DNA of 64,000 bases from a virus, in IMG/VR virus record IMGVR_UViG_3300033141_003979, positions 1 through 64,000 of that record. The stretch is one strand, 5' to 3'. Below, one piece after another: positions 4,357 through 16,174 of the stretch. A program made the translations under genes and the position numbers. Each line of letters begins with the position of its first letter. Within the stretch, counting starts at the first letter, position 1. The notes under the pieces were generated by a model that was not told the origin of the DNA, made no database searches, and saw only the letters and a list, made by a program, of their open reading frames with translations.

Positions 4357-5661
4357 ATGAGTAAACTAGCCCTATTCGGCGGCCCAAAAGTCAGAGAAGA
4401 TCTTTTCCCATCACAAAATACCTTTGATCATGAAGAGATGCAGGCCGTATGGCGAGTTATGAAAGAAGGTCGCCTATCAGGCTATCGGGGAAGTTGGTGT
4501 CCTGAATTTTTCGGGGGTCCTGAAATTCAGGCTCTCGAAACCGAATGGAAGAAGAAATTCAATGTCAAACATGCCATTGCTGTAAATAGTTGCACAAGTG
4601 GTCTTCATGTTGCCTGTGGAGCAATAGGATTAACTCCAGGAAGTGAAGTCATAGTTACCCCTTATTCAATGACATGTAGTTCTACAGCTCCTATGATATA
4701 CGGCGCTATACCTGTATTTGCTGATATCGACAATTATTGTGCTCTTGATCCAAAATCAATTGAAGAAAGAATAACCCCTAATACAAAAGCTATAATTGTT
4801 GTTAGTTTATTTGGAATGCCTTATAATCCAAAAATAAATAATATAGCAAAAAAACATGGGCTTCTAATAATCGAAGATGCTGCTCAAGCAATTGGGTCAG
4901 GCCTATCTTTGGGATATGATGAAGCAAATGGGGAACATTTCATCCATGCTGGAAATCTTGGTGATATCGGAGTATATTCCTTCAATTTCGGAAAGCATAT
5001 CAATGCCGGAGAAGGTGGAATAGTAGTTACTAACAATGATGATTTGGCTTTTAGAGTTAGGCTATTTGCTAATCATGGCGAGGCAGTAATCAGCGCTATG
5101 AATCCAGAAGAGTCAAGAAATATGATATCTGAAAATATAGTTGGATTTAATATGAGAATGACAGAGTTACAAGCTGCAATTATACGAGTACAATTAAAAA
5201 AGCTTGATGGATTTATTAAAACAAGAAGAGAAAATGTTAATACATTACATAATATATTAGAACAAATACCTGCTATAACTCTGTCCCCGATCAGAGACAA
5301 TTGCACTCATAGTTATTATGTAGATTCGTATTTATGGGATAGCAAACAAGCTAAAAATTTATACAGAGATAAATTTATTGAAGCCGTAAAAGCTGAATTA
5401 ACCCCGCGGGCAGGGAGAGAAGGGGAAGGAGTCCCAATTGGTTGTGGATATATATCTCCGTTATATCTCATGCCATTATTTCAACAACAAAATCCCTTGT
5501 CGCCAAATTATAAAAAAGGTTCATGCCCTAATTGTGAAGATTTATCTTTTAATAAATTATTTTTATCGCTTTTTCATGCACCCCGAAGTACAAAAGATGA
5601 TATGAAAGATGTTGGAAAGGCTTTTCAAAAGGTCTGGGAAAATAGGAAAGAATTAAAATAA
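4357..5661 (+). CDS. DegT/DnrJ/EryC1/StrS PLP-dependent sugar aminotransferase (PseC/LegC-like)
   Basis: AVNSCTSGLH, IIEDAAQAIG, YSFNFGKHINAGEGG (PLP lysine), GFNMRMTELQAA. Confidence 0.93.
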   Translation: MSKLALFGGPKVREDLFPSQNTFDHEEMQAVWRVMKEGRLSGYRGSWCPEFFGGPEIQALETEWKKKFNVKHAIAVNSCTSGLHVACGAIGLTPGSEVIVTPYSMTCSSTAPMIYGAIPVFADIDNYCALDPKSIEERITPNTKAIIVVSLFGMPYNPKINNIAKKHGLLIIEDAAQAIGSGLSLGYDEANGEHFIHAGNLGDIGVYSFNFGKHINAGEGGIVVTNNDDLAFRVRLFANHGEAVISAMNPEESRNMISENIVGFNMRMTELQAAIIRVQLKKLDGFIKTRRENVNTLHNILEQIPAITLSPIRDNCTHSYYVDSYLWDSKQAKNLYRDKFIEAVKAELTPRAGREGEGVPIGCGYISPLYLMPLFQQQNPLSPNYKKGSCPNCEDLSFNKLFLSLFHAPRSTKDDMKDVGKAFQKVWENRKELK

Positions 5662-5665
5662 ATCC

Positions 5666-5694
5666 TTGATTTCTACCTAAAACTACTATATACT
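5666..5694 (+). promoter_or_regulatory. Sigma70-type promoter
   Basis: TTGATT (5666-5671), 17 bp spacer, TATACT (5689-5694). An equivalent promoter lies at 11173. Confidence 0.75.
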
Positions 5695-5700
5695 TATGCT

Positions 5701-5800
5701 AGATAGCAAAACGATAAATTCAAATTTCAAGCCTGAGAATCCTCATATTGCGAAGTATGAGGGCGTTATCGTTAACGCTATCTGTTCTCAGGCTTTTTTA
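5701..5800 (+). ncRNA. C4-antisense-like three-stem structured RNA, copy 1
   Basis: Closing stem 5729-5739/5785-5795, GCGA (GNRA) hairpin 5741-5762, hairpin 5763-5778, then a U-run. The 5' leader 5701-5717 is complementary to 5766-5783. Covaries with copy 2. Confidence 0.75.
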
Positions 5801-5812
5801 TTTGGAGACGAC

Positions 5813-6421
5813 ATGGGTAAGTATAGAATAGGAAAAACTACTCAAATTACAATTTTTTGTTCACAATGTAATAAGCCTAAAAAAATATATCCCTTTTTAC
5901 AAAATCAAAAACATCACTTTTGTAATAAAAAATGTCATATAAAATGGCAAACCAAAAATATGAAAGGTAAATATAGTCCTGCTTGGAAAGGCGGAAATGT
6001 TATAGCTTTTTGTTCATGGTGCAATAAACCAAAAGAAATAAATCTCTATAAAAAATACAATCAAAAATACCATTTCTGTAGTCAAGAATGTAAAAAAATA
6101 TGGATGTCAGGTGAAAATGCCCCTAGTTGGCGCGGTGGGATATCTACTACTCCATATTGTTTTATATGGTCAGATTGGGAATATAAACAATCTATCAAAG
6201 ACAGAGATAATAATGAATGTCAAAACAAAGTTGATTGTCGCAAAAATTCTAATCACCTTCCTTTATGCCTTCATCATATAGATCACAATAAACAAGAATG
6301 TAATCCTTGGGATATTATAACTGTTTGTCATAGTTGCAATGGTAGAGCAAATTTCAACATAGAATACTGGAAAGAATTTTATCAAAATATAATGACTGAA
6401 AAATATGGATATAAATATTAA
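5813..6421 (+). CDS. Free-standing HNH endonuclease with zinc-finger repeats
   Basis: Probable start ATG 5813 behind GGAG. Two C..C/FC...C repeats, WKGG/WRGG motifs, LHHIDHNKQEC...CHSCNGRAN. Confidence 0.85.
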   Translation: MGKYRIGKTTQITIFCSQCNKPKKIYPFLQNQKHHFCNKKCHIKWQTKNMKGKYSPAWKGGNVIAFCSWCNKPKEINLYKKYNQKYHFCSQECKKIWMSGENAPSWRGGISTTPYCFIWSDWEYKQSIKDRDNNECQNKVDCRKNSNHLPLCLHHIDHNKQECNPWDIITVCHSCNGRANFNIEYWKEFYQNIMTEKYGYKY

Positions 6422-6433
6422 AAAGGGAATAAT

Positions 6434-7300
6434 ATGACTATCAAATGGTGTGCTGAAATAGGAAGTAATCATAACCAAAATTTAGATAGAACAATTAAAT
6501 TGATAAAAGAGGCTAAAAAAATAGGCTGTGATTTTGTTAAGTTCCAACTTTTCAAGGGAGAGAATTTATATCACTCATCATTCGGTGCCAAGATCAATCA
6601 AATGCGAAAGTGGGAATTACCAAGCCATTTTCTTCCTGAGATAAGCCGGTGCTGCAAGGTCAATGACATCCGACTTGGCATCTCTGTTTTTGATCTTGAA
6701 GCCGTAGAAATTGCCAGCAAATATGCAGATTGCCTCAAGATCGGTAGTTATGAATTGCTTTGGCATGATTTAATCAAAACAGTTGTCAAAACAGGTAAGC
6801 CATGGATGATATCATCAGGTATGGCCGATTGGGGACAAATATCAAAGGCAATATCTCTTGTAAGACCTTGCAAGTTTGCTCAGGTGCCGATGGCAATCCT
6901 TCATTGCAACTCAAACTATCCAGCGCGCCCACAGAACTGCTGCCTTAATCAAATCTCTCTTTTGAATAAAATCTTTCCAGCAATGAAAATCGGCTGGTCA
7001 GATCACACAACTGAATCCGGAGTAATATATAAAGCCGTAGCTCTTGGGGCAAAATTTATTGAATTCCATTTTGACCTAGAAGATGGCCTTGGTTATGAAT
7101 CATCAATAGGCCATTGTTGGAAACCAGATAAGATCGGAGAAGTAATTCACAATGTAAGGATCGGAGAGATTGAAGAAGAAAGCACAGATACAGGCGAAAG
7201 CGAAGCGGCCAAGTGGAGGACAGACCCAACTGATGGGCTGAGACCATTGAAAAAATTTAGGGAAGAGTTGTTGAAAGATGAGGCAATGGAGGAGATATGA
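6434..7300 (+). CDS. NeuB/PseI family nonulosonic acid synthase; no C-terminal SAF domain seen
   Basis: AEIGSNH, VKFQ, KIGS, HCNSNYPA, GWSDHT, IEFHF. Confidence 0.92.
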   Translation: MTIKWCAEIGSNHNQNLDRTIKLIKEAKKIGCDFVKFQLFKGENLYHSSFGAKINQMRKWELPSHFLPEISRCCKVNDIRLGISVFDLEAVEIASKYADCLKIGSYELLWHDLIKTVVKTGKPWMISSGMADWGQISKAISLVRPCKFAQVPMAILHCNSNYPARPQNCCLNQISLLNKIFPAMKIGWSDHTTESGVIYKAVALGAKFIEFHFDLEDGLGYESSIGHCWKPDKIGEVIHNVRIGEIEEESTDTGESEAAKWRTDPTDGLRPLKKFREELLKDEAMEEI

Positions 7301-7509
7301 AAGGTATACTGATAGGATGCGTAATCGGTGCGATAATGTGGGCTGTTATAATTATGTGTGCTACGAGCCTACAACCTGCCACCATTGCCTTGCCGTATCG
7401 TCAGGAATGGCCTCGGAAACTGATGAGCGTTGACAGTTTGGGCATTAGCTACTGGCAAGCAAGACCGTTGGGGTTGATAATGATGATTGAAAAGGGATGT
7501 CCGAGATGA
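7297..7509 (+). CDS. Small hypothetical membrane protein
   Basis: Hydrophobic N-terminus, ATGA overlap, GGAGG RBS. Confidence 0.55.
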   Translation: MKGILIGCVIGAIMWAVIIMCATSLQPATIALPYRQEWPRKLMSVDSLGISYWQARPLGLIMMIEKGCPR

Positions 7510-7730
7510 CCAGAGGCGAGTGGCGACCAAAGCCAGGGGATGGCATAACAGACTACAACGGAATTAAGGTGGTAGAGGAAGGGATAGGCGAGAAATTGTC
7601 TGATATAGCGCTTAGTGATTACCTAAAGGTGCGAAAGCAAGTAAGACTGCTAGAAGATGAAGTTGAATTATTAAAGGCCCAGAAGCAAGAATTGATTAAT
7701 GAAATATTGAGGTTGAGAAGAGGGATATAA
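7497..7730 (+). CDS. Hypothetical coiled-coil protein
   Basis: Tightly packed ORF with a heptad-rich C-terminus. Confidence 0.55.
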   Translation: MSEMTRGEWRPKPGDGITDYNGIKVVEEGIGEKLSDIALSDYLKVRKQVRLLEDEVELLKAQKQELINEILRLRRGI

Positions 7731-7731
7731 C

Positions 7732-8859
7732 ATGAAACACTCGATAGTTTTCAAGCAGAAGGACATATATGCCAGTTTTCCCCTGCTAGGATATATAGAT
7801 GGCATTCTGACTATCGGCTTCTTCACTGCCCCGCAACCAGATCACATGGGCATCTTTGATTGGAATGTTAGGAGGTCACACGATGAAGGAGAGACATGGG
7901 AATATAGAAAATTTATGGATTTTCCTTATGACTGGCCAGCGGCATCGGCAAGAGAAAGATCAGACAGATTTACAACCACATTACCAGAGGGAACAGAAAT
8001 GATCACGGGCTCAACCGGATTCATCGGCAAAAAGAATATGGAGGACAAGTTTGAAAAAGTCCTCAGATGCAAAGGACTATTCCAGCGGACTTCAACTGAC
8101 AATTGGAAAACAGCAGTACAATGGATATGGGAAATCCCCAATGTTGACATTGTATTAACTTTTCCAAGACATCTACAAATCGATAATTTGATATTCATTC
8201 CCGCTTATGCAGTATTGGAAAATGGATTGAATAGAGCCTTTGTATGGAGATCTTCTAATGGAGGTAAAAACTGGCGACTTCACAATATGTTTCCTGATGA
8301 AATAAATGCAAATGAGATTGCCTTTGTCGAAACCGAAAGAGGCATTCTTGCCCACATCCGCAGCGATACCACCCCTTTCATTATGGAAAGTTGGTCATAC
8401 GATGGGATAACTTGGACGTATCCAACTTATATACATTATGACAAGTATTGCCTGAAAGTAGCTGGTGGGCCATCACATCTATTAAGACTACAGGATGGAA
8501 GAATATTAGATACCTATGGCTATCGTTTTAACAAGATGGGTATAAAAGCTGTCATATCAGAAGATGAGGGAGTTTCATGGATTAGTCCTACTACCCTGCG
8601 GAATGATGGCGGATATTCGAGTAGTCTGCACAAAAGAAGATGGAGAAACAAATTCAAATTGCCTCATGCCGGCAACGACGTCGGCTATCCCACATCAGTA
8701 CAATTAGGGAATGAATCAATCTTGACAGCTTACTACATTACCTGTGAAGACAGGATAACGCACATTGCTACAACAAACTGGGATATTGATGATGAAAATC
8801 AATTAGCGACTCCATCTGGCTCACCTAGCCCATCACCTGAATTTGAGGAGGAGAAATAA
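7732..8859 (+). CDS. Sialidase-like BNR/Asp-box beta-propeller protein
   Basis: Asp-boxes SHDEGETW, STDNWKT, SSNGGKNW, SYDGITW, SEDEGVSW; late GYP motif. Confidence 0.82.
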   Translation: MKHSIVFKQKDIYASFPLLGYIDGILTIGFFTAPQPDHMGIFDWNVRRSHDEGETWEYRKFMDFPYDWPAASARERSDRFTTTLPEGTEMITGSTGFIGKKNMEDKFEKVLRCKGLFQRTSTDNWKTAVQWIWEIPNVDIVLTFPRHLQIDNLIFIPAYAVLENGLNRAFVWRSSNGGKNWRLHNMFPDEINANEIAFVETERGILAHIRSDTTPFIMESWSYDGITWTYPTYIHYDKYCLKVAGGPSHLLRLQDGRILDTYGYRFNKMGIKAVISEDEGVSWISPTTLRNDGGYSSSLHKRRWRNKFKLPHAGNDVGYPTSVQLGNESILTAYYITCEDRITHIATTNWDIDDENQLATPSGSPSPSPEFEEEK

Positions 8860-9563
8860 TGAGTGAATATCGAATATACATGATTGATGGTGATCATCTT
8901 TTAGGGTGGAAAGGAAACAAGTGCAAGAACGTCCTCGAACTTGTGAAGATGTCTATTGAGTTATTGAAAGAAGAAGGATGGAAAATTGAATATAAGGAGC
9001 CAAAGACAGAGAAAGGAGAGAAATATATTACTGATGATGGTGAATGTATGTTTGACGTAGAAGTCGACAGAGTGCCTTGCAATTCTTTTCTTCATGGCAT
9101 CCGCCTTACCCTGACCTATCCGGAGCCGGAGCCAGTAGTGGATAAGTGTACAGCAAATATCGGCACTGATTGTGATATCTGTGATCGTGATAAACCATAT
9201 TGTGCTCACTACAAGATAAAAGAAAGACTTAACAAATCAGTACCCGACCCTCAAGGAGATGAAACCGAAGAAGCAGCAACCAATTATATCATACCTGGGC
9301 ATGTACCCAACCTCGACGAGGCGGAGGTGGGTCAAGACGTTCAAAGGAACAAACTACCACGGTGTCCGACTTGTGGGCAACCTGAAGCTGTAGAAATAGA
9401 CGGAAATGGCGAAATACGCATTATTCGTGACGAGCCGGAGGTGGATGAGTGGGAGAAGCTTAAAGAACTTTGTTCTGACAGTTTAGGAGTTTCTGAAATG
9501 AAGTATTTGCTTCGGGGTCTTGTGAAAGAAATTGACAAACTCAGATGTCCGAAGGGAGGATGA
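8859..9563 (+). CDS. Hypothetical Cys-containing protein
   Basis: Translationally coupled ORF with CDIC and CPTCG motifs. Confidence 0.55.
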   Translation: MSEYRIYMIDGDHLLGWKGNKCKNVLELVKMSIELLKEEGWKIEYKEPKTEKGEKYITDDGECMFDVEVDRVPCNSFLHGIRLTLTYPEPEPVVDKCTANIGTDCDICDRDKPYCAHYKIKERLNKSVPDPQGDETEEAATNYIIPGHVPNLDEAEVGQDVQRNKLPRCPTCGQPEAVEIDGNGEIRIIRDEPEVDEWEKLKELCSDSLGVSEMKYLLRGLVKEIDKLRCPKGG

Positions 9564-10553
9564 ATGAACTTCGAGTCTAAACTATTCTGGCAAGGCCGAG
9601 AAGTATTGATTTCCGGTGGCACTGGCAGTCTTGGGAAGGCAATTACAAACTTGCTTATCCAAGAAGAATATCCAATCAAAGGATTGCGCATCTTCAGCCG
9701 TGACGAACTGAAGCAATATCAAATGAGGCAAAGCCTCAAAGCCCCATTCCCAGTGGCTTTCCTGATTGGAGATATCCGCAATCGTAAACGGTTGACCAGG
9801 GCTATGGAAGGGGTCGATACATGCATTCATGCCGCAGCATTAAAACAAGTAGACACATCTGAAAGCAATCCGTGGGAATTTATTGAAACCAACATTATAG
9901 GCACACAAAATGTTCTCGATGCCTGCCTGGATTGCAAGGTTGCCAGAGCAATGTTGATAAGCACTGACAAGGCCTCTTATCCCATTAATCTATACGGCAT
10001 GACCAAAGGATGTGCTGAACGGATCTTTGTGCATGGCAATATTTATTCCGGTGGTAGAATTCCAATATTTGGTGCTTGTAGATATGGGAATGTTCTCGGT
10101 TCACGAGGGTCTGTTATCCAAGTATTTCAGGAACAAGCCCTCAATGGGCAAATAATAACCATCACCGACAGTCAAATGACTAGATTCTGGATTACTATGA
10201 AAGATGTAGCCCGCTTCATTCTTCAATCAATCGAAATCATGCAAGCAGGAGAAATATATATCCCAAAAATGCCGAGCATGAAGATCGTAGATCTAGCAAA
10301 AACTATCATTGCAGAAACAGGCACAATGGGAAAATCGAAAATTGAAGAAATTGGTGTCAGACCAGGAGAGAAATTGCATGAGACATTGGTAACCAAAGAA
10401 GAAAGCTACAAATGTGATGTCCAGGATACCTATTATTTAATCCATCCAGTCAGAGAGTGCCCACCGGAGACGGTCAGGGCTTTATTCTCATATACAAGTG
10501 ATAACAATGATTGGTGGTTAACGAAGAAAGAGTTATGGGAAATGATAAAATGA
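9564..10553 (+). CDS. UDP-GlcNAc 4,6-dehydratase (PseB/FlaA1-like)
   Basis: ISGGTGSLG, FSRDELKQ, HAAALKQV, STDKA, PINLYGMTK, RYGNVLGSRGSV, MTRFW, RPGEKLHE. Confidence 0.93.
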   Translation: MNFESKLFWQGREVLISGGTGSLGKAITNLLIQEEYPIKGLRIFSRDELKQYQMRQSLKAPFPVAFLIGDIRNRKRLTRAMEGVDTCIHAAALKQVDTSESNPWEFIETNIIGTQNVLDACLDCKVARAMLISTDKASYPINLYGMTKGCAERIFVHGNIYSGGRIPIFGACRYGNVLGSRGSVIQVFQEQALNGQIITITDSQMTRFWITMKDVARFILQSIEIMQAGEIYIPKMPSMKIVDLAKTIIAETGTMGKSKIEEIGVRPGEKLHETLVTKEESYKCDVQDTYYLIHPVRECPPETVRALFSYTSDNNDWWLTKKELWEMIK

Positions 10554-11176
10554 CATCAGCAATGTATGAAACTAAACGGCTTATTCTTGAACCATTTAGC
10601 AGGAAACATCTTGAAGGGCCTTATCGTTCATGGTTCCATGATCCTGAAGTAACAAAATACAATTCCCATGGCCTCTTCCCATATACGATTGCCAAGATGG
10701 AAGCTTTTCTTGCATCAATTGAGGCAGGTAATATGATTGTAATGGCAGTAATGGCAAAATCAAAAAAATCAACTATAGAAATTCAAAATTCAAAAATTTC
10801 TTCTGATTGTGACCAAGGATTCAATTACATTTTTTCTGAAACAAACTTAATTCACATCGGCAACATCTCCCTTCAATCTATCAACTGGATTAACCGCAGT
10901 GCCGAGTACGCAGTAATTGTGGGAGATAAATCCTACTGGGGCAAAGGCTATGCCACAGAGGCAAGCCTGCTGTTGTTTGAGCACGGCTTTAAACGATTAA
11001 ATTTACATAAAATTTGGACTGGAACAGCAAAGACAAATATTGGAATGCAGCATGTAGCAAAAAAATTAGGAATGCAGTGGGAAGGAATGTTTCGAGAAGC
11101 AATGTTTTTAAACGGTCAATATGTAGATATTCTTACATATGGGATCTTAAAAAAAGAATTTAATCAAATTTCTTGA
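10550..11176 (+). CDS. GNAT N-acetyltransferase (PseH/RimJ-like)
   Basis: Probable start 10550 (ATGA overlap). HIGNISL..INWINRSAE, YWGKGYATEA, LNLHKI. Confidence 0.85.
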   Translation: MTSAMYETKRLILEPFSRKHLEGPYRSWFHDPEVTKYNSHGLFPYTIAKMEAFLASIEAGNMIVMAVMAKSKKSTIEIQNSKISSDCDQGFNYIFSETNLIHIGNISLQSINWINRSAEYAVIVGDKSYWGKGYATEASLLLFEHGFKRLNLHKIWTGTAKTNIGMQHVAKKLGMQWEGMFREAMFLNGQYVDILTYGILKKEFNQIS

Positions 11177-11201
11177 CTTTTCCAAAAAAAAATAATATAA
11201 T
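11173..11201 (+). promoter_or_regulatory. Sigma70-type promoter
   Basis: TTGACT (11173-11178), 17 bp spacer, TATAAT (11196-11201). Confidence 0.8.
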
Positions 11202-11207
11202 TATGAT

Positions 11208-11310
11208 GAATAGTATAGCAACGATCCAAAATTTAGAGCCTGAGAGTTTTCATGTCGTGAGGCATGGAAGCGTTGTTGCTAACGCTATTCACTCTCGGGC
11301 TTTTCTTTTT
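11208..11310 (+). ncRNA. C4-antisense-like three-stem structured RNA, copy 2
   Basis: Closing stem 11237-11247/11291-11301, GTGA (GNRA) hairpin 11248-11269, hairpin 11270-11285, then a U-run. Leader 11208-11225 is complementary to 11272-11290. Confidence 0.75.
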
Positions 11311-11322
11311 GGGGAGATTGGC

Positions 11323-12219
11323 ATGAGATTCAAAAGACGGAATCTACCACTATGTGAATGTGGATGTGGATATGAAGTTAAATGGTGTCAGACAAGAAAA
11401 CAATGGAATCCATTTATTAATGGACATCAAAATAGAGGCAAAAATAATTCACAATATAGCAAGACTGGCAAATTGAGTGCTGTTTATGGCAAAGACAAAT
11501 ATGCAGAAGAAAAAGCAAAATCTAAACCACTATGTAAATGTGGATGTAAAAATAAGACTAAATGGTGCAAATCAAGAAAGAAATTTAATGAATATATCAA
11601 TGGTCATTACATTTGTATTAATAATCCAATGAATAATCCAAAATCAGTAGCGAAATTAACTGGAAAAAATAGTTGTAATTATGGGAAAACAGGCAAAAAT
11701 CACCCTGCTTATGGATCTCAAAAATCTGAAGCAAAAAGAAAGAAAACATCAAAAACATTAATAGGAAATCAGAATAGCAAAGGGACTAGAAGGAATAAAG
11801 AATTTTGTGAAAACCAAAGAAAAATAATGTTAAATGGAGGGGCAAAACATGCCAATTCGTTTAAGACACCAGAAAGTTATAAAGCCCATACAGAATATAT
11901 GCTTAATGGTGGGGCTGCATATTTAAATTCACTTATTAAATCGCCCTCTAAACCACAAGTAGAATTGTTTGAACTAATCAAACAACTATTTCCAAATGCA
12001 ATTCTTAACCATCCATCATTGAATCGTTCTATTGACATAGCAATTCCTGACAAAATGATTGCAATTGAATATGATGGATCATACTGGCATCAAGATCAAA
12101 AAGCAGATGATAAAAGGCAGAAAGAATTAGAGTCACTTGGATGGAAGTTTCTGAGATACTGTGATTATGTCCCTACTATTGATGAATTAGAAAGGGATTT
12201 AAAAGGAGCAGAAAGATGA
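11323..12219 (+). CDS. Free-standing endonuclease with CxCGC repeats, NUMOD3-like motifs and a DUF559/Vsr-like domain
   Basis: Probable start ATG 11323 behind GGGGAG. CECGCG and CKCGC; C-terminus highly similar to 864-1253. Confidence 0.82.
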   Translation: MRFKRRNLPLCECGCGYEVKWCQTRKQWNPFINGHQNRGKNNSQYSKTGKLSAVYGKDKYAEEKAKSKPLCKCGCKNKTKWCKSRKKFNEYINGHYICINNPMNNPKSVAKLTGKNSCNYGKTGKNHPAYGSQKSEAKRKKTSKTLIGNQNSKGTRRNKEFCENQRKIMLNGGAKHANSFKTPESYKAHTEYMLNGGAAYLNSLIKSPSKPQVELFELIKQLFPNAILNHPSLNRSIDIAIPDKMIAIEYDGSYWHQDQKADDKRQKELESLGWKFLRYCDYVPTIDELERDLKGAER

Positions 12220-12449
12220 AAAAGAGCAAAGCAGAAAAATTCTCTCCTTCAGATATAAAACAAGCAACTGATATGACTATAATTAACAAGATCCAATTCA
12301 TTCGTACCAAAAACAACCAAGCTTGGATGGATATCCTGCGATGTGCTATGTCGAATGCCCCAGAAGAAACAAAGGTGATAATGGCCGCCATTGCAAAAAA
12401 CGATGCAGAAATTACAGAACTGACAAAGGAATTAGCAGATGCCTTGTGA
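12216..12449 (+). CDS. Hypothetical protein
   Basis: ATGA overlap, AGGAG RBS; conserved-looking IRTKNNQAWMDILR segment. Confidence 0.65.
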   Translation: MKKSKAEKFSPSDIKQATDMTIINKIQFIRTKNNQAWMDILRCAMSNAPEETKVIMAAIAKNDAEITELTKELADAL

Positions 12450-12636
12450 ACACAAAAATACGTACTATGAAGATTGGCCTAACGGCAGATGCATTGAAAT
12501 CTGCCTTGATTACAGTATGTCTCGTCATCACTGGGAACAGGGGCAATCTGAGTGGGTAATAGTTAAAGATATTGCAGGAGCAAAAGAGCGAGTGCAGGAG
12601 TCTATCAATGAAATGAGAGACGTAGTATGTTTTTAG
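12439..12636 (+). CDS. Hypothetical protein
   Basis: Overlapping small ORF in operon orientation. Confidence 0.5.
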   Translation: MPCEHKNTYYEDWPNGRCIEICLDYSMSRHHWEQGQSEWVIVKDIAGAKERVQESINEMRDVVCF

Positions 12637-12643
12637 AAAGATA

Positions 12644-12814
12644 ATGGCCAAACTAGTCAAAGGGTATAAGTGCCCAAAGTGTGGAGGGCAGATTCGAGAA
12701 GATGAAAAAATGCAGAATAGGTATTTTTGTACCAATGCCGGAGATGCGTATGGTAAAGGTGTATGTATATTTGAAACTTATCGTAGAAGCGATTTAGTGA
12801 AGGAGGAGGAATGA
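12644..12814 (+). CDS. Small zinc-ribbon protein (56 aa), not in the ORF track
   Basis: MAKLVKGYKCPKCGG...YFC...VCIF. Confidence 0.5.
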   Translation: MAKLVKGYKCPKCGGQIREDEKMQNRYFCTNAGDAYGKGVCIFETYRRSDLVKEEE

Positions 12815-12888
12815 AACTTAAACCTGTTTATAAGATTTACATCTCTATAAATATGTTCATGAATTAGCAGAGTTATTGAGAGGAAAAA

Positions 12889-14271
12889 ATGAAAAAGAAG
12901 AACAAAACGCTGGCTAAAAATCTCAATGCATTCAAAAAAATCAATCCCCCCATGCATGGTTGGCTGATGGAACAGAAAGGGGTTAATTGGATCGATGAGA
13001 TTCGCAGCAAAAATGGGGACAAGAATTTCCTCATCCAAGAAGGCAGCAAAATCCAGCCAGCCTACAATATGAACAACCCAACAAAGCAAGCCAACAAAGG
13101 CACCAAGAACATGAGGTTGCACAAGGAAAACATTTCAATAATTGTTGGCTTTGGCCTTGGTTATCTTGCTAAAGCTATCTTAGACAAGATGGAAAAAGGA
13201 CACCATGTCCTTGTAATTGAGCCAGTAGGAGATGTAATAAAATTAGCCCTCGGCAATATTGATTTTTCCAAGGCAATCTCTAATGGAGACTTATTGATAA
13301 TTGCCCCAGGCAAACAGGAAGTTATTTTTGCTCTCCATTTTATGAGCAATCAATTCGTGATCTCAGACTGGTTCATGACGATAGACAAATATACAAACCT
13401 CAAGCCAGATGTCTACAAAGAGTTAACCGGACTTACTGCCGATATCATTAACCAGGTCATGTGCAATACAGGCACAATAGCTGGTGCCGCAGGCGGCAAG
13501 ATCGCTGACAATGACATTGCCTGCCTGCCCTATGTCATAAGGCACAGGGGTGTTGCAGAATTGAAGGACCTATACAAAGACAAACCTGCTATTCTTGTAA
13601 GTACAGGCCCATCATTGGCCAAAAACATCCACCATCTAATCGACTTAGAGGACAAGACAGTGATCATTGCAGTCGGTCAAGCATTGAGACCTCTGCTTGC
13701 CTATGGAATCCGTCCGGACTTCATCTGCACCGTAGATTTTGGAGAAGTCAATTACTGCCATTTCAAAGGGCTCATGGACAGCAACATTCCCTTAGTAACA
13801 ATCAATAGGGCTTATGCCCCATTGCTCAAGGCTTGGCAGGGACCAAAATTCATCGCAGCAACACCAGTGCCCGGCTTTGAGCACATGGCCACTGGCATAT
13901 TATCAGATAAAGGATTCCTTGAGGCCGGAGGCAGTGTGGCACATTTGGTATTCGGGTTGGCTCAACGACTTGGCTGCAATCCAATAGTCTTCGTGGGCCA
14001 GGATCTTGCTCTCGGAGAGACTTCTCATATCCCTCTGGCCGATGCCGCAGGAGAGGTGAAGATTGATGAAAGCGGGCAAATCCATTGGGAAGTGAAGGAT
14101 CACAGATGTCATCTTCATAAGAAAGATCAAACTTATTTAATGGGGCCTATTGCACAAGTACCAGGCTATTTCGGGAAGCCAGTTATGACGAATATGGGAT
14201 TAGCCAGCTTCTTATCGGTATTTGAGGCAATGGTTGAAGGGCATTTGAGGAGGAATGATGAAACGAATTAA
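12889..14271 (+). CDS. Maf (motility-associated factor, DUF115) protein glycosyltransferase, N-terminal part
   Basis: VGFGLGY, AILVSTGPSLAKNI, GIRPDFICTVD, GGSVAH, LGCNPIVFVGQDLA. Ends before the INATEGG motif. Confidence 0.88.
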   Translation: MKKKNKTLAKNLNAFKKINPPMHGWLMEQKGVNWIDEIRSKNGDKNFLIQEGSKIQPAYNMNNPTKQANKGTKNMRLHKENISIIVGFGLGYLAKAILDKMEKGHHVLVIEPVGDVIKLALGNIDFSKAISNGDLLIIAPGKQEVIFALHFMSNQFVISDWFMTIDKYTNLKPDVYKELTGLTADIINQVMCNTGTIAGAAGGKIADNDIACLPYVIRHRGVAELKDLYKDKPAILVSTGPSLAKNIHHLIDLEDKTVIIAVGQALRPLLAYGIRPDFICTVDFGEVNYCHFKGLMDSNIPLVTINRAYAPLLKAWQGPKFIAATPVPGFEHMATGILSDKGFLEAGGSVAHLVFGLAQRLGCNPIVFVGQDLALGETSHIPLADAAGEVKIDESGQIHWEVKDHRCHLHKKDQTYLMGPIAQVPGYFGKPVMTNMGLASFLSVFEAMVEGHLRRNDETN

Positions 14272-14620
14272 CTGTATCTATTATTTATATGAAAAATGTC
14301 TTCATCCAAAACAAAAGAAAAGACTTTGGTTTTTCCATCCAACATGTTATGTACCTTGCTGCACTCTTCAGAAGCCGTATGCAAAACCACCTAGATGCCC
14401 TCCCCCACCACCTCCCGCCCCGAAAATCCCAATGTGTAAGATAGTAACTCATCTAATTTTGCCCAATGAACCCTACCAAATCTTCGTCTGCCCTAAATGT
14501 GATGGAGAAAAAGAAGATAAAGACGCCGTCCCAAGTCCGATGGCAGACGGAGGAAATTACTATGGGCCTTGCCGCCTATGTGATGGGAAGGGATATATAA
14601 AGGAGAAGGTGGAGAAATGA
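14258..14620 (+). CDS. Cys/Pro-rich zinc-binding hypothetical protein inserted in maf
   Basis: CPKCDG...CRLCDGKG (DnaJ-type zinc motif), poly-Pro tract, GAGGAGG RBS. Confidence 0.6.
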   Translation: MKRINCIYYLYEKCLHPKQKKRLWFFHPTCYVPCCTLQKPYAKPPRCPPPPPPAPKIPMCKIVTHLILPNEPYQIFVCPKCDGEKEDKDAVPSPMADGGNYYGPCRLCDGKGYIKEKVEK

Positions 14621-14700
14621 AATCTAGCTTAATAGGTCTTGTTATTAGTATGCTTATGGGATTAGCAATTATTGTATTTAGCTGGTTAAAGGGAGAATAA
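14617..14700 (+). CDS. 27-aa hydrophobic peptide
   Basis: MKSSLIGLVISMLMGLAIIVFSWLKGE; ATGA overlap, GGAG RBS. Confidence 0.4.
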   Translation: MKSSLIGLVISMLMGLAIIVFSWLKGE

Positions 14701-14701
14701 T

Positions 14702-16174
14702 ATGCAGCGAGTAATTATTAACGCAACGGAAGGTGGGGCTCATATCAAAGGCACAGACCGGATGCCTCTCAAGAAAGTAATTAACAAATACTGCCAAAAA
14801 CCCATCAACAAATCGAAGGTCAAAAAGCTTCTCTCTTTGGCCAAAAATGGAGACGAACTGATTACCAAAGTTATCCCTCTGCTTGAAGATGATATCAAAG
14901 TACTAGATGAAATCTCTACCAGCAGCCGCAGAGGCCTTGCCGCTTGCCGAGGGCTCAAAACCTTAATGAGTAGATCCAATTACAGAGGTCTGCTTTCCAG
15001 AAAGAAGGAAAAGCAACTTGATTGGATGCTCAATAAAGCCAGGCAAAAGGGAGGGAAGGACTTCATAAAAACAAACCAGATATTCTATGCAAAGGCAATT
15101 GCTTCGGTCAAAAAATCTAAGCTCAAGAATGTGTTCATCTTATCTAATAAGAACTTCAAACACTCGGCTACTGCCCAGTTAGCAGCAACCAAAAACCCAC
15201 TAGTTAACGTGGCAATCTACGGTGCCAGCCGAGAGATCCAGGGTCGGCGGTTGAAAGTAAAAGAGACATTAGCACATTTCCTACGAAACAACAAAGATGC
15301 ATTGACCCGCGTAGAGCGGAATGAGCTAATTCTCAAGACGGCAAGGCGAGCATCAGAATCATTGAGGAAATCATACAAAGAAACATTAGAGTTGTTGAAG
15401 AAATATGACGGGACAAAAGACAGTAGTCTGCTGGTATCAAACGAAGTTGAGCCAATAAATCTCGACGACTCAGAAGAGTATTTTGCCGCAGGCAATTGGG
15501 CACATCCGTTGTTAGATGCAAGTAAAATTATTAAAAAAGATCCAACTGATAGAAAGGCTAATGAAATTTTAGCAAAAACATTATCAATGAGGGCACAAGC
15601 TAAAAATAAAGCCCGAAATAATGAAGTCAAAAATGCAGACAGAGAAACCCGATTGCTCCAATACAACAAACTACTCAAAGAGAGTAAGGAAATAGGCCGG
15701 AAAGAAAACAAGTTTGACGAGGCACTAACGATGCTGAAGAAGGCAGCCAAATTGATGCCGGAAGAGGAAGAGGCCCGCTGGGGAGTTGCTACTGCCTTGC
15801 ATCATGCTGGGAAGATTAAAGAGTCCTTGAAAGAATATGAAAAGTTAATCAAGGATTTTCAAGACAATTATATGTACCTCCTTGAATACGGGCAGGTGCT
15901 CCTGCGCAATAAGAAAACTCAGGAAGGCCTCAAAATAATCGGTGAGGTAATGGCAAAGACCGATGAATTTGATTACTTCCTAGCTCGACTAGGCGAGATA
16001 TATGAGCACTCTGATATGATGGAAGAAGCCTTGACAGCATACAATTCATATCTAGAAAAATTCCCATTCAACTATCAGATTTGGGTCCGAAAAGGAAATT
16101 GTCTAACTGCACTAGGTAGAAACACAATGGCAGATTGGGCATTCCGAAAGGCAAGAGAAATCAGACCGGATTAA
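14702..16174 (+). CDS. Maf C-terminal part (INATEGG motif and helical region) fused to TPR repeats
   Basis: Starts MQRVIINATEGGAHIKG, the conserved distal Maf motif. C-terminal TPR-like repeats. Confidence 0.82.
   Translation: MQRVIINATEGGAHIKGTDRMPLKKVINKYCQKPINKSKVKKLLSLAKNGDELITKVIPLLEDDIKVLDEISTSSRRGLAACRGLKTLMSRSNYRGLLSRKKEKQLDWMLNKARQKGGKDFIKTNQIFYAKAIASVKKSKLKNVFILSNKNFKHSATAQLAATKNPLVNVAIYGASREIQGRRLKVKETLAHFLRNNKDALTRVERNELILKTARRASESLRKSYKETLELLKKYDGTKDSSLLVSNEVEPINLDDSEEYFAAGNWAHPLLDASKIIKKDPTDRKANEILAKTLSMRAQAKNKARNNEVKNADRETRLLQYNKLLKESKEIGRKENKFDEALTMLKKAAKLMPEEEEARWGVATALHHAGKIKESLKEYEKLIKDFQDNYMYLLEYGQVLLRNKKTQEGLKIIGEVMAKTDEFDYFLARLGEIYEHSDMMEEALTAYNSYLEKFPFNYQIWVRKGNCLTALGRNTMADWAFRKAREIRPD

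Follow-up and report, generated by a model that had tools for sequence, protein, structure and literature searches.

A folded RNA leader found directly before a nuclease gene was characterized at positions 11173-11325 of a window that comprises the first 64 kb of the phage record IMGVR_UViG_3300033141_003979 (109,770 bp with direct terminal repeats). It belongs to a real, widespread and uncatalogued RNA family in which the design of the c4 RNA of phage P1 is placed before selfish nucleases. The element is composed of a sigma70-type promoter, a folded leader of ~120 nt, a Shine-Dalgarno (SD) sequence and the nuclease ATG, and it is a paralogue of a cassette found at 5666-5815. The function that we infer from this organization, with a probability of roughly 50%, is that of a self-locking brake acting in cis on nuclease transcription and translation, by predicted termination and predicted masking of the SD. 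The source phage is uncultured. Its record encodes a contractile-tail virion; the tail sheath has a match to phrog_165, and its identity to Mu/P2-like sheaths from Proteobacteria phages does not exceed 41%.

The family fold is defined by a closing stem (P1) followed by a U-run, a hairpin with a GNRA loop (P2) and a second hairpin (P3), which is joined to the 3' strand of P1 by the segment J3/1. The P1/P2 and P2/P3 junctions have no free bases, J3/1 varies freely and there are no conserved unpaired core bases. Approximately the first 16 transcribed bases form two blocks spaced by 2-5 nt and located ~14 nt (up to 26 nt) from P1; block 1 can pair with J3/1 and block 2 with the P3 loop. In most members an additional weak helix (P0) pairs the leader with part of the SD region. 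The 72-nt cores of the two window copies have folding energies of -33 to -35 kcal/mol and z-scores of -6 to -7 vs shuffles. An earlier note made on this DNA had described them as diverged copies with compensatory changes, and all the particulars that it gave are present. The whole record holds four copies (c1 to c4), two of which were found by a pattern search followed by a covariance model built from the copies. They carry four different codes, each matched to its own partner (Table 1), so that the compensatory changes now extend to two further matched copies of the same genome as well as to the covariation described below.

Homologues were collected with three pattern scans, two on viral and one on metagenome contigs, whose output was filtered with the covariance model. 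The resulting 68 matches (54-138 bits) correspond to 52 distinct sequences from viral and metagenome contigs. The search patterns fixed parts of P1 and P2, whose conservation at those bases is uninformative; P3, its loop, J3/1, the leader and P0 were not fixed. A first collection pattern centred on P3 had returned four chance matches and zero homologues, no RNA element was found at four loci (L009-L012) collected by protein-guided search that encode a related DUF559 C-terminal domain, and blastn of copy 1 against GenBank phages gave no match.

In the model-based alignment of the 52 members, 90.6% of the cells pair versus 76.0% in shuffles (0/500 reach it), while sliding the partners lowers pairing to 35-49%. 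P1, P2 and P3 are 97-99% paired with many double changes, P3 itself covarying. All 11 leader-to-loop and leader-to-junction pairs, which are absent from the model, show two-sided changes. In the subset of 31 members whose loop has the canonical 6 nt, all loop positions and junction positions J1-J6 pair with the leader in 25-31 sequences, and 2-5 different pair types occur at each position. The frequent U-G pairs (e.g. 41/52 at one P2 position) place the RNA on the nuclease sense strand. The leader pairing often takes in the uppermost base and the two lowest bases of the P3 3' strand. Two readings agree with the data, namely coexistence of all helices in one knotted fold or an alternation between two states. 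The U-run follows P1 in 52/52 listed sequences (P1 of 9-11 bp, then at least four U), the search pattern having demanded only TT at this position.

The pairing between leader and core is private to each cassette. It was scored as a joint duplex of the leader with its two targets because separate scoring of the longest run in each block, with G-U allowed, was too permissive in AT-rich leaders. The mean energy is -16.2 kcal/mol for cognate combinations versus -7.3 kcal/mol for non-cognate ones, the cognate leader ranking first in 37/51 members and among the top three in 47/51. Own leaders have z = -4.7 against their own shuffles, with 39 of 5100 shuffles reaching the cognate value. Contigs with several cassettes (L017, L061, L086) each carry different codes, and in c2 and c4 the P2 hairpins are identical while the loop codes differ. 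In a two-block pattern search of the genome the exact target occurs only in the cognate leader and matches with one mismatch are at chance level; scanning the genome freely for duplexes with the loop-to-junction segment was uninformative, G+C-rich chance pairings being dominant. The only clear exception to the matched pairing is the cassette at L073:500-647, whose P3 loop complement is lost. The nuclease open reading frame (ORF) of this cassette is cut to 9 codons and it looks like a decaying copy. The proposal of the earlier note that the cassettes bear orthogonal specificity codes thus holds for the privacy of the codes. Their complementarity is demonstrated only within one transcript, and regulatory specificity between molecules, or any role beyond holding the fold together, would be a further step.

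The position of the promoter defines the predicted 5' end of the RNA. Scored as matches out of 12 to the sigma70-type boxes, a promoter of at least 8/12 precedes the RNA in 50/51 members, and that of copy 2 (11/12) is the top promoter-like match within the 10 kb scanned. In 48/50 cases the distance from the -10 box to the first paired leader base is 4-6 nt, with outliers at 7 and 11 nt. This places the base at approximately +1 and makes block 1 the predicted 5' end of the primary transcript. At the other end of the leader P0 covers at least two SD bases in 39/51 members. Its helices are 79-86% paired and 6/7 pairs show two-sided changes (e.g. UUCAAAU/AUUUGGA, CUUGAUA/UAUUAAG and CCUAAAA/UUUUAAGG). 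The cassette has a terminator-type order (promoter, G+C-rich stem with immediate U-run, gene). Termination is a prediction, and it is unusual for a terminator that the stem encloses further helices in a branched fold. Note that the promoter of copy 2 abuts the preceding gene to the base: the stop TGA of the upstream gene coding a GNAT protein (ORF 10511-11176) sits within the -35 box. The same arrangement is found at copy 4, the -35 boxes being TTGACT or TTGATT (11173-11178 and L016:1471-1476).

The genes found downstream code for nucleases of at least three unrelated folds, which favours expression control over binding of the RNA to one protein. A Pfam search with 38 downstream proteins identified NUMOD3 (12), HNH (7), HNH_3 (5), HNH_5 (3), MTES_1575 (6), DUF559 (5), AP2 (2) and GIY-YIG (1), and another 15 proteins share the Pfam-silent HNH domain of copy 1. 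The copy 2 nuclease is of the DUF559 type, as the earlier note had assigned it (25.1 bits for a cut-off of 20.6, with an additional match to MTES_1575), and also matches phrog_3339 (homing endonuclease). The copy 1 nuclease has no Pfam or PHROG match of its own; its 100 carboxyl-terminal residues are 59% identical to the HNH part of the copy 4 gene, which matches HNH PHROGs. Many of the proteins begin with M-S/G-R/K-F-K/R-R and bear CxCGCG zinc-ribbon repeats. The downstream ORFs have the features of homing endonucleases: HNH, GIY-YIG or PD-(D/E)xK domains, usually combined with NUMOD or zinc-ribbon modules, in genes that stand free among phage genes.

Cassette and nuclease recombine, in agreement with the earlier view of a portable promoter-RNA unit. 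The RNAs of c1 and c3 are 80% identical and those of c2 and c4 83%, versus 60-66% for the other pairs. The nuclease domains group oppositely, c1 with c4 (HNH, 59% identical) and c2 with c3 (DUF559, 44%), and c1 and c3 share nothing. Two contigs (L029 and L095) share ~97% identity between the -35 box and about codon 7, the RNA included, and have unrelated flanks outside these borders, one nuclease being of the DUF559 type and the other of the HNH type. These borders delimit a module of ~175 bp that spans from the -35 box to codon 7.

The coordinates of the four cassettes and of their components are compiled in Table 1.

Table 1. Components of the nuclease-leader cassettes (window positions unless stated otherwise; SD, Shine-Dalgarno sequence).
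Feature	Position	Strand	Details
Copy 2 promoter	11173-11201	+	-35 TTGACT, 17-nt spacer, -10 TATAAT; 11/12 matches
Copy 2 leader block 1	11207-11214	+	core GAATAG 11208-11213; predicted transcript 5' end; partner CTATTC 11285-11290 (J3/1)
Copy 2 leader block 2	11217-11222	+	AGCAAC; partner P3 loop GTTGCT
Copy 2 P0 5' strand	11225-11231	+	TCCAAAA (anti-SD); partner TTTTGGG 11307-11313
Copy 2 three-way junction	11237-11301	+	fold -33.1 kcal/mol, z = -6.1
Copy 2 P1	11237-11247 with 11291-11301	+	11 bp
Copy 2 P2	11249-11256 with 11261-11268	+	loop GTGA 11257-11260
Copy 2 P3	11270-11274 with 11281-11285	+	5 bp; loop GTTGCT 11275-11280
Copy 2 J3/1	11286-11290	+	CTATTC spans 11285-11290
Copy 2 U-run, P0 3' strand and SD	11301-11316	+	U-run directly 3' of P1 (terminator-like); SD GGGGAG 11311-11316
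Copy 2 nuclease gene	11323-12219	+	298 aa, ATG 11323; N-terminal CxCGCG zinc-ribbon repeats, C-terminal DUF559/MTES_1575 (Vsr-like) domain
Copy 1 cassette	5666-5815	+	layout of copy 2 with other letters at paired positions
Copy 1 promoter	5666-5694	+	TTGATT-17-TATACT
Copy 1 leader block 1	5702-5707	+	GATAGC; J3/1 partner GCTATC
Copy 1 leader block 2	5710-5715	+	AACGAT; loop partner ATCGTT
Copy 1 P0	5719-5725 with 5800-5806	+	
Copy 1 P1	5730-5740 with 5784-5794	+	
Copy 1 P2 loop	5750-5753	+	GCGA
Copy 1 P3	5763-5767 with 5774-5778	+	loop ATCGTT 5768-5773
Copy 1 nuclease gene	5813-6421	+	202 aa, HNH type, ATG 5813
Copy 3	record 97791-97917 (outside window)		before second DUF559-type gene
Copy 4	record 106709-106832 (outside window)		before NUMOD/HNH gene split by frame break
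Code of c1			block 1 GATAGC, block 2 AACGAT, P3 loop ATCGTT
Code of c2			block 1 GAATAG, block 2 AGCAAC, P3 loop GTTGCT
Code of c3			block 1 GATAA, block 2 AGTAAC, P3 loop GTTACT
Code of c4			block 1 GAACAG, block 2 GATAAC, P3 loop GTTATC

One structural frame through the RNA is free of stops in 44/52 members (5696-5815 and 11203-11325 in the window, plus 50 relatives). This frame has 9 stop triplets versus 30.8 +/- 4.6 in column shuffles (0/1000 as low), a test made generous by kinship, while stop counts in the other two frames match expectation. A depletion so far beyond column composition argues that the open frame is itself a feature of the element. The frame is in phase with the nuclease ATG in 28/48 members, including the subfamily of the window. 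In out-of-phase members it mostly ends between -13 and +20 nt from the ATG, with ATGA overlaps in L048 and L024, and in the closest subfamily most differences in length are multiples of 3. Conservation does not extend to the implied peptide: counted by us, the codon differences between c2 and c4 are ~5 synonymous and ~12 non-synonymous. The single ATG that is conserved in this frame lacks an SD and is located upstream of the predicted start site; a leaderless mRNA beginning at this codon was rejected, the ATG being only 1 nt after the -10 box. The earlier note had considered the longer amino termini of the annotated ORFs to be artefacts of reading through the RNA. The ATG preceded by an SD, the shared amino terminus and the position of the cassette border favour the short start in support of this view, while the maintenance of a stop-free frame speaks against a pure artefact.

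The closest described RNA in architecture is the c4 RNA of P1, likewise a three-way junction, whose P2 is capped by a UUCG loop and leads straight into P3 (Weinberg et al. 2010, PMC2864571). The 5' block UUGACAG is the partner of its J3/1 (CUGUCAA) and the 3' block GUUAGUG that of its P3 loop (UCACUAAC), both targets occurring once upstream (a1/b1) and once downstream over the icd SD (a2/b2) (PMC2864571). The nuclease-leader RNA has the same three-way junction with a closing P1, a P2 with stable tetraloop directly before P3, an antisense P3 loop and an upstream two-block site on the same transcript whose 5' and 3' blocks have J3/1 and the loop, respectively, as partners; blocks 1 and 2 correspond to a1 and b1. 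As in the c4 RNAs of P1 and P7, codes differ among relatives and pairing is kept. The blocks of P1 are, however, 7 nt apart and ~100 nt from P1 stem, distances that are much shorter in the nuclease leaders, and its P3 loop has 10 nt instead of 6 nt. The P1 stem of the nuclease leaders has no internal loop and is followed by the U-run, unlike that of c4. The c4 RNA of P1/P7 is matured by RNase P and is a trans-acting repressor of the icd-ant immunity operon, whereas the setting here is that of homing endonucleases in a lytic-looking myovirus.

A site equivalent to a2/b2 was not found at the SD/ATG: cognate energies are -4.7 (loop) and -3.7 (J3/1) kcal/mol versus -4.4 and -3.5 for non-cognate combinations (median rank 19-20/51). 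The C4 model RF01695 has no match at E <= 10 in either window copy or in the whole genome and none at E <= 1 in 20 homologue loci. By analogy, the nuclease-leader RNA would work like part of the c4 system, but it lacks two properties that define membership, the match to the model and a2/b2. A search of the window, the two leaders and 20 homologue loci with Rfam 15, run at gathering as well as at E-value thresholds, identified only a tRNA in L087, where the tRNA gene (L087:2102-2172, minus strand, 52 bits) is located ~130 nt upstream of the cassette in a metagenome contig. The int-alpA motif (RF02996), likewise a small three-armed RNA of phage or prophage DNA, gives no match at E <= 10, whether in the two leader regions or genome-wide. 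No paper linking c4-like RNAs with homing endonucleases was found in a literature search of limited scope.

Promoter, leader, G+C-rich stem with U-run, SD and gene succeed each other in the order of an attenuator. In rep attenuation of pT181 and pIP501 an antisense RNA from the opposite strand chooses between a pre-emptor helix and the terminator. These systems share with the nuclease cassettes the order of the elements and a loop-to-strand pairing with fast-evolving specificity, which in the plasmids defines incompatibility. In the cassettes, by contrast, the two partners lie on the same strand, and the terminator stem has no competitor in the leader.

A functional parallel is offered by homing-endonuclease genes of T-even phages (I-TevI/II/III, segB, mobE, segF), which are controlled by hairpins masking the ribosome binding site, 5' terminators and translational coupling (PMC2988022). 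Common to both systems are RNA structure at the nuclease 5' end as negative control, which is a prediction for the cassettes, a terminator-like stem just before or inside the gene start, an SD partly in a helix, here a weak predicted one, and hints of coupling to upstream translation. The T-even leaders are nevertheless simple hairpins without a conserved family fold or a private pairing code. They are relieved by a late promoter inside the hairpin, of which none is seen in the nuclease cassettes; the cassettes have a sigma70-type promoter of their own upstream of the whole fold.

The restraint of homing endonucleases by RNA structure in T-even phages suggests, by analogy, the cis-acting brake given even odds above. 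The RNA would begin at the promoter start site with the two blocks, which would dock on J3/1 and on the P3 loop to produce a compact knotted fold with the 5' end tucked in. Most transcripts, either initiated at the cassette promoter or reading in from upstream, would stop at the U-run after P1, and those that read through would be poorly translated owing to P0, which covers the first SD bases in most members, so that little nuclease would be made. Several observations weigh against this brake. A terminator would cut off downstream genes such as the NeuB gene at 6434, so that termination must leak or be relieved. P0 is weak, with a mean of only -5.4 kcal/mol versus -3.9 kcal/mol for shuffles. 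Action in cis alone does not explain why the loop code differs between c2 and c4 with their identical P2, nor does an untranslated leader account for the open reading frame.

The last two points are accommodated by readings that are compatible with the cis brake. The difference between the c2 and c4 codes fits selection against cross-talk, as in the heteroimmunity of P1 and P7, if the cassette yields a c4-type antisense RNA of ~105 nt that extends to the U-run, has its own leader removed and uses its freed J3/1 and P3 loop to bind the two-block site on nascent transcripts of the same cassette only, which would generate a private negative feedback. The architecture and wiring of P1 c4, the four codes in one genome and the different codes within L017, L061 and L086 point in the same direction. 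However, the sole complementary site is on the same molecule, 14-26 nt upstream, and without processing of the RNA self-pairing should be favoured; there is no cognate-specific site over the SD or start codon (median rank 20/51), no second genomic site beyond chance and no Rfam C4 match. Action in trans is on balance doubtful, though it deserves consideration. The open frame would be explained if ribosomes arriving from the upstream gene melt P0 and P1 and reach the nuclease frame or start, while transcripts from the cassette promoter, which have no start codon, stay locked. Such a translated leader is consistent with the scarcity of stops, with the phase or end of the frame relative to the ATG and with length differences in multiples of 3, and coupling and ribosome scanning are known for T4 homing-endonuclease genes (PMC2988022). 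Against it, the only conserved in-frame ATG is without SD and upstream of the predicted start site, there is no conserved peptide, family kinship makes the shuffle overstate significance and out-of-frame reading soon ends by chance in AT-rich DNA; we regard it as unlikely. About equally speculative is a composite of these elements, in which the cassettes would be mutually orthogonal, self-addressed riboregulators acting in trans and in cis whose leader is also read by ribosomes, an RNA lock combined with an ORF.

Explanations without such a lock are less probable. A promoter and a terminator-like stem in every member and an RNA 5' end paired from ~+1 could reflect a passive insulator that ends and restarts transcription, with the leader pairing stabilizing the RNA and without regulation of the nuclease. 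The promoter is, however, upstream of the terminator and cannot restart what the cassette stops; moreover, a simple hairpin would suffice for this role, which a three-way junction, a GNRA loop and a two-block pairing exceed, so that the insulator appears improbable. The compact knotted fold with its GNRA loop is also reminiscent of a riboswitch aptamer, a self-cleaving ribozyme or a site for autorepression by the nuclease, and I-TevI does repress its own gene, though at the DNA level (PMC2988022). The lack of conserved unpaired core bases, the unrelated folds of the downstream nucleases and the absence of any Rfam ribozyme or riboswitch match render a sensor or catalytic RNA very improbable. 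A hammerhead-like reading of CUGAGA in P1 was rejected, these bases being fully paired and the junctions having no free core bases. An RNA that binds the nuclease like a type III antitoxin is unlikely in view of the three unrelated nuclease folds.

Homing endonucleases need low and well-timed levels, and to our knowledge little is known of how these are controlled outside T-even phages. The cis-acting brake would provide a conserved and portable control module that travels among unrelated nuclease genes of uncultured phages. The c4 architecture, hitherto described in phage immunity, is re-used with a two-block address that changes freely between copies. If the codes act in trans, several nucleases of one phage would each have a private feedback loop. 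The family offers dozens of natural code pairs of the type sought for orthogonal RNA regulators in synthetic biology. It is absent from Rfam 15, and a model would flag promoters, true start codons and nuclease cassettes in viral metagenomes. If real, the open frame would make this fold a rare instance of a leader under joint selection for RNA structure and for translation.

Copies 1 and 2 are found among sugar-pathway genes (4357-16174, coding a DegT aminotransferase, a NeuB synthase, a GNAT acetyltransferase and a Maf/MptE-like protein), and any termination in the cassettes would consequently affect the expression of this pathway. The copy 4 nuclease gene is distributed over two frames (G000:C1:106830-107790, equivalent to L016:1622-2586, outside the window). 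Its amino-terminal zinc-ribbon/NUMOD part (177 aa) ends at L016:2155 and the HNH part is in the other frame from ~L016:2140; the break adjoins a run of six A and could correspond to a pseudogene, a sequencing error or a programmed frameshift. A well-preserved cassette (L061:1119-1208, 133 bits) is followed by an ORF of 30 codons starting with MGKFKRR, a nuclease remnant, which indicates that the RNA can outlive its gene. In another member (L067:3198-3200, minus strand) ATA is found where all relatives have the nuclease ATG and the 340-aa frame behind it is intact. Finally, one cassette (L018:777-1322) precedes a gene whose 182-aa product shows weak winged-helix matches and lacks a recognisable nuclease domain, a possible non-nuclease passenger.

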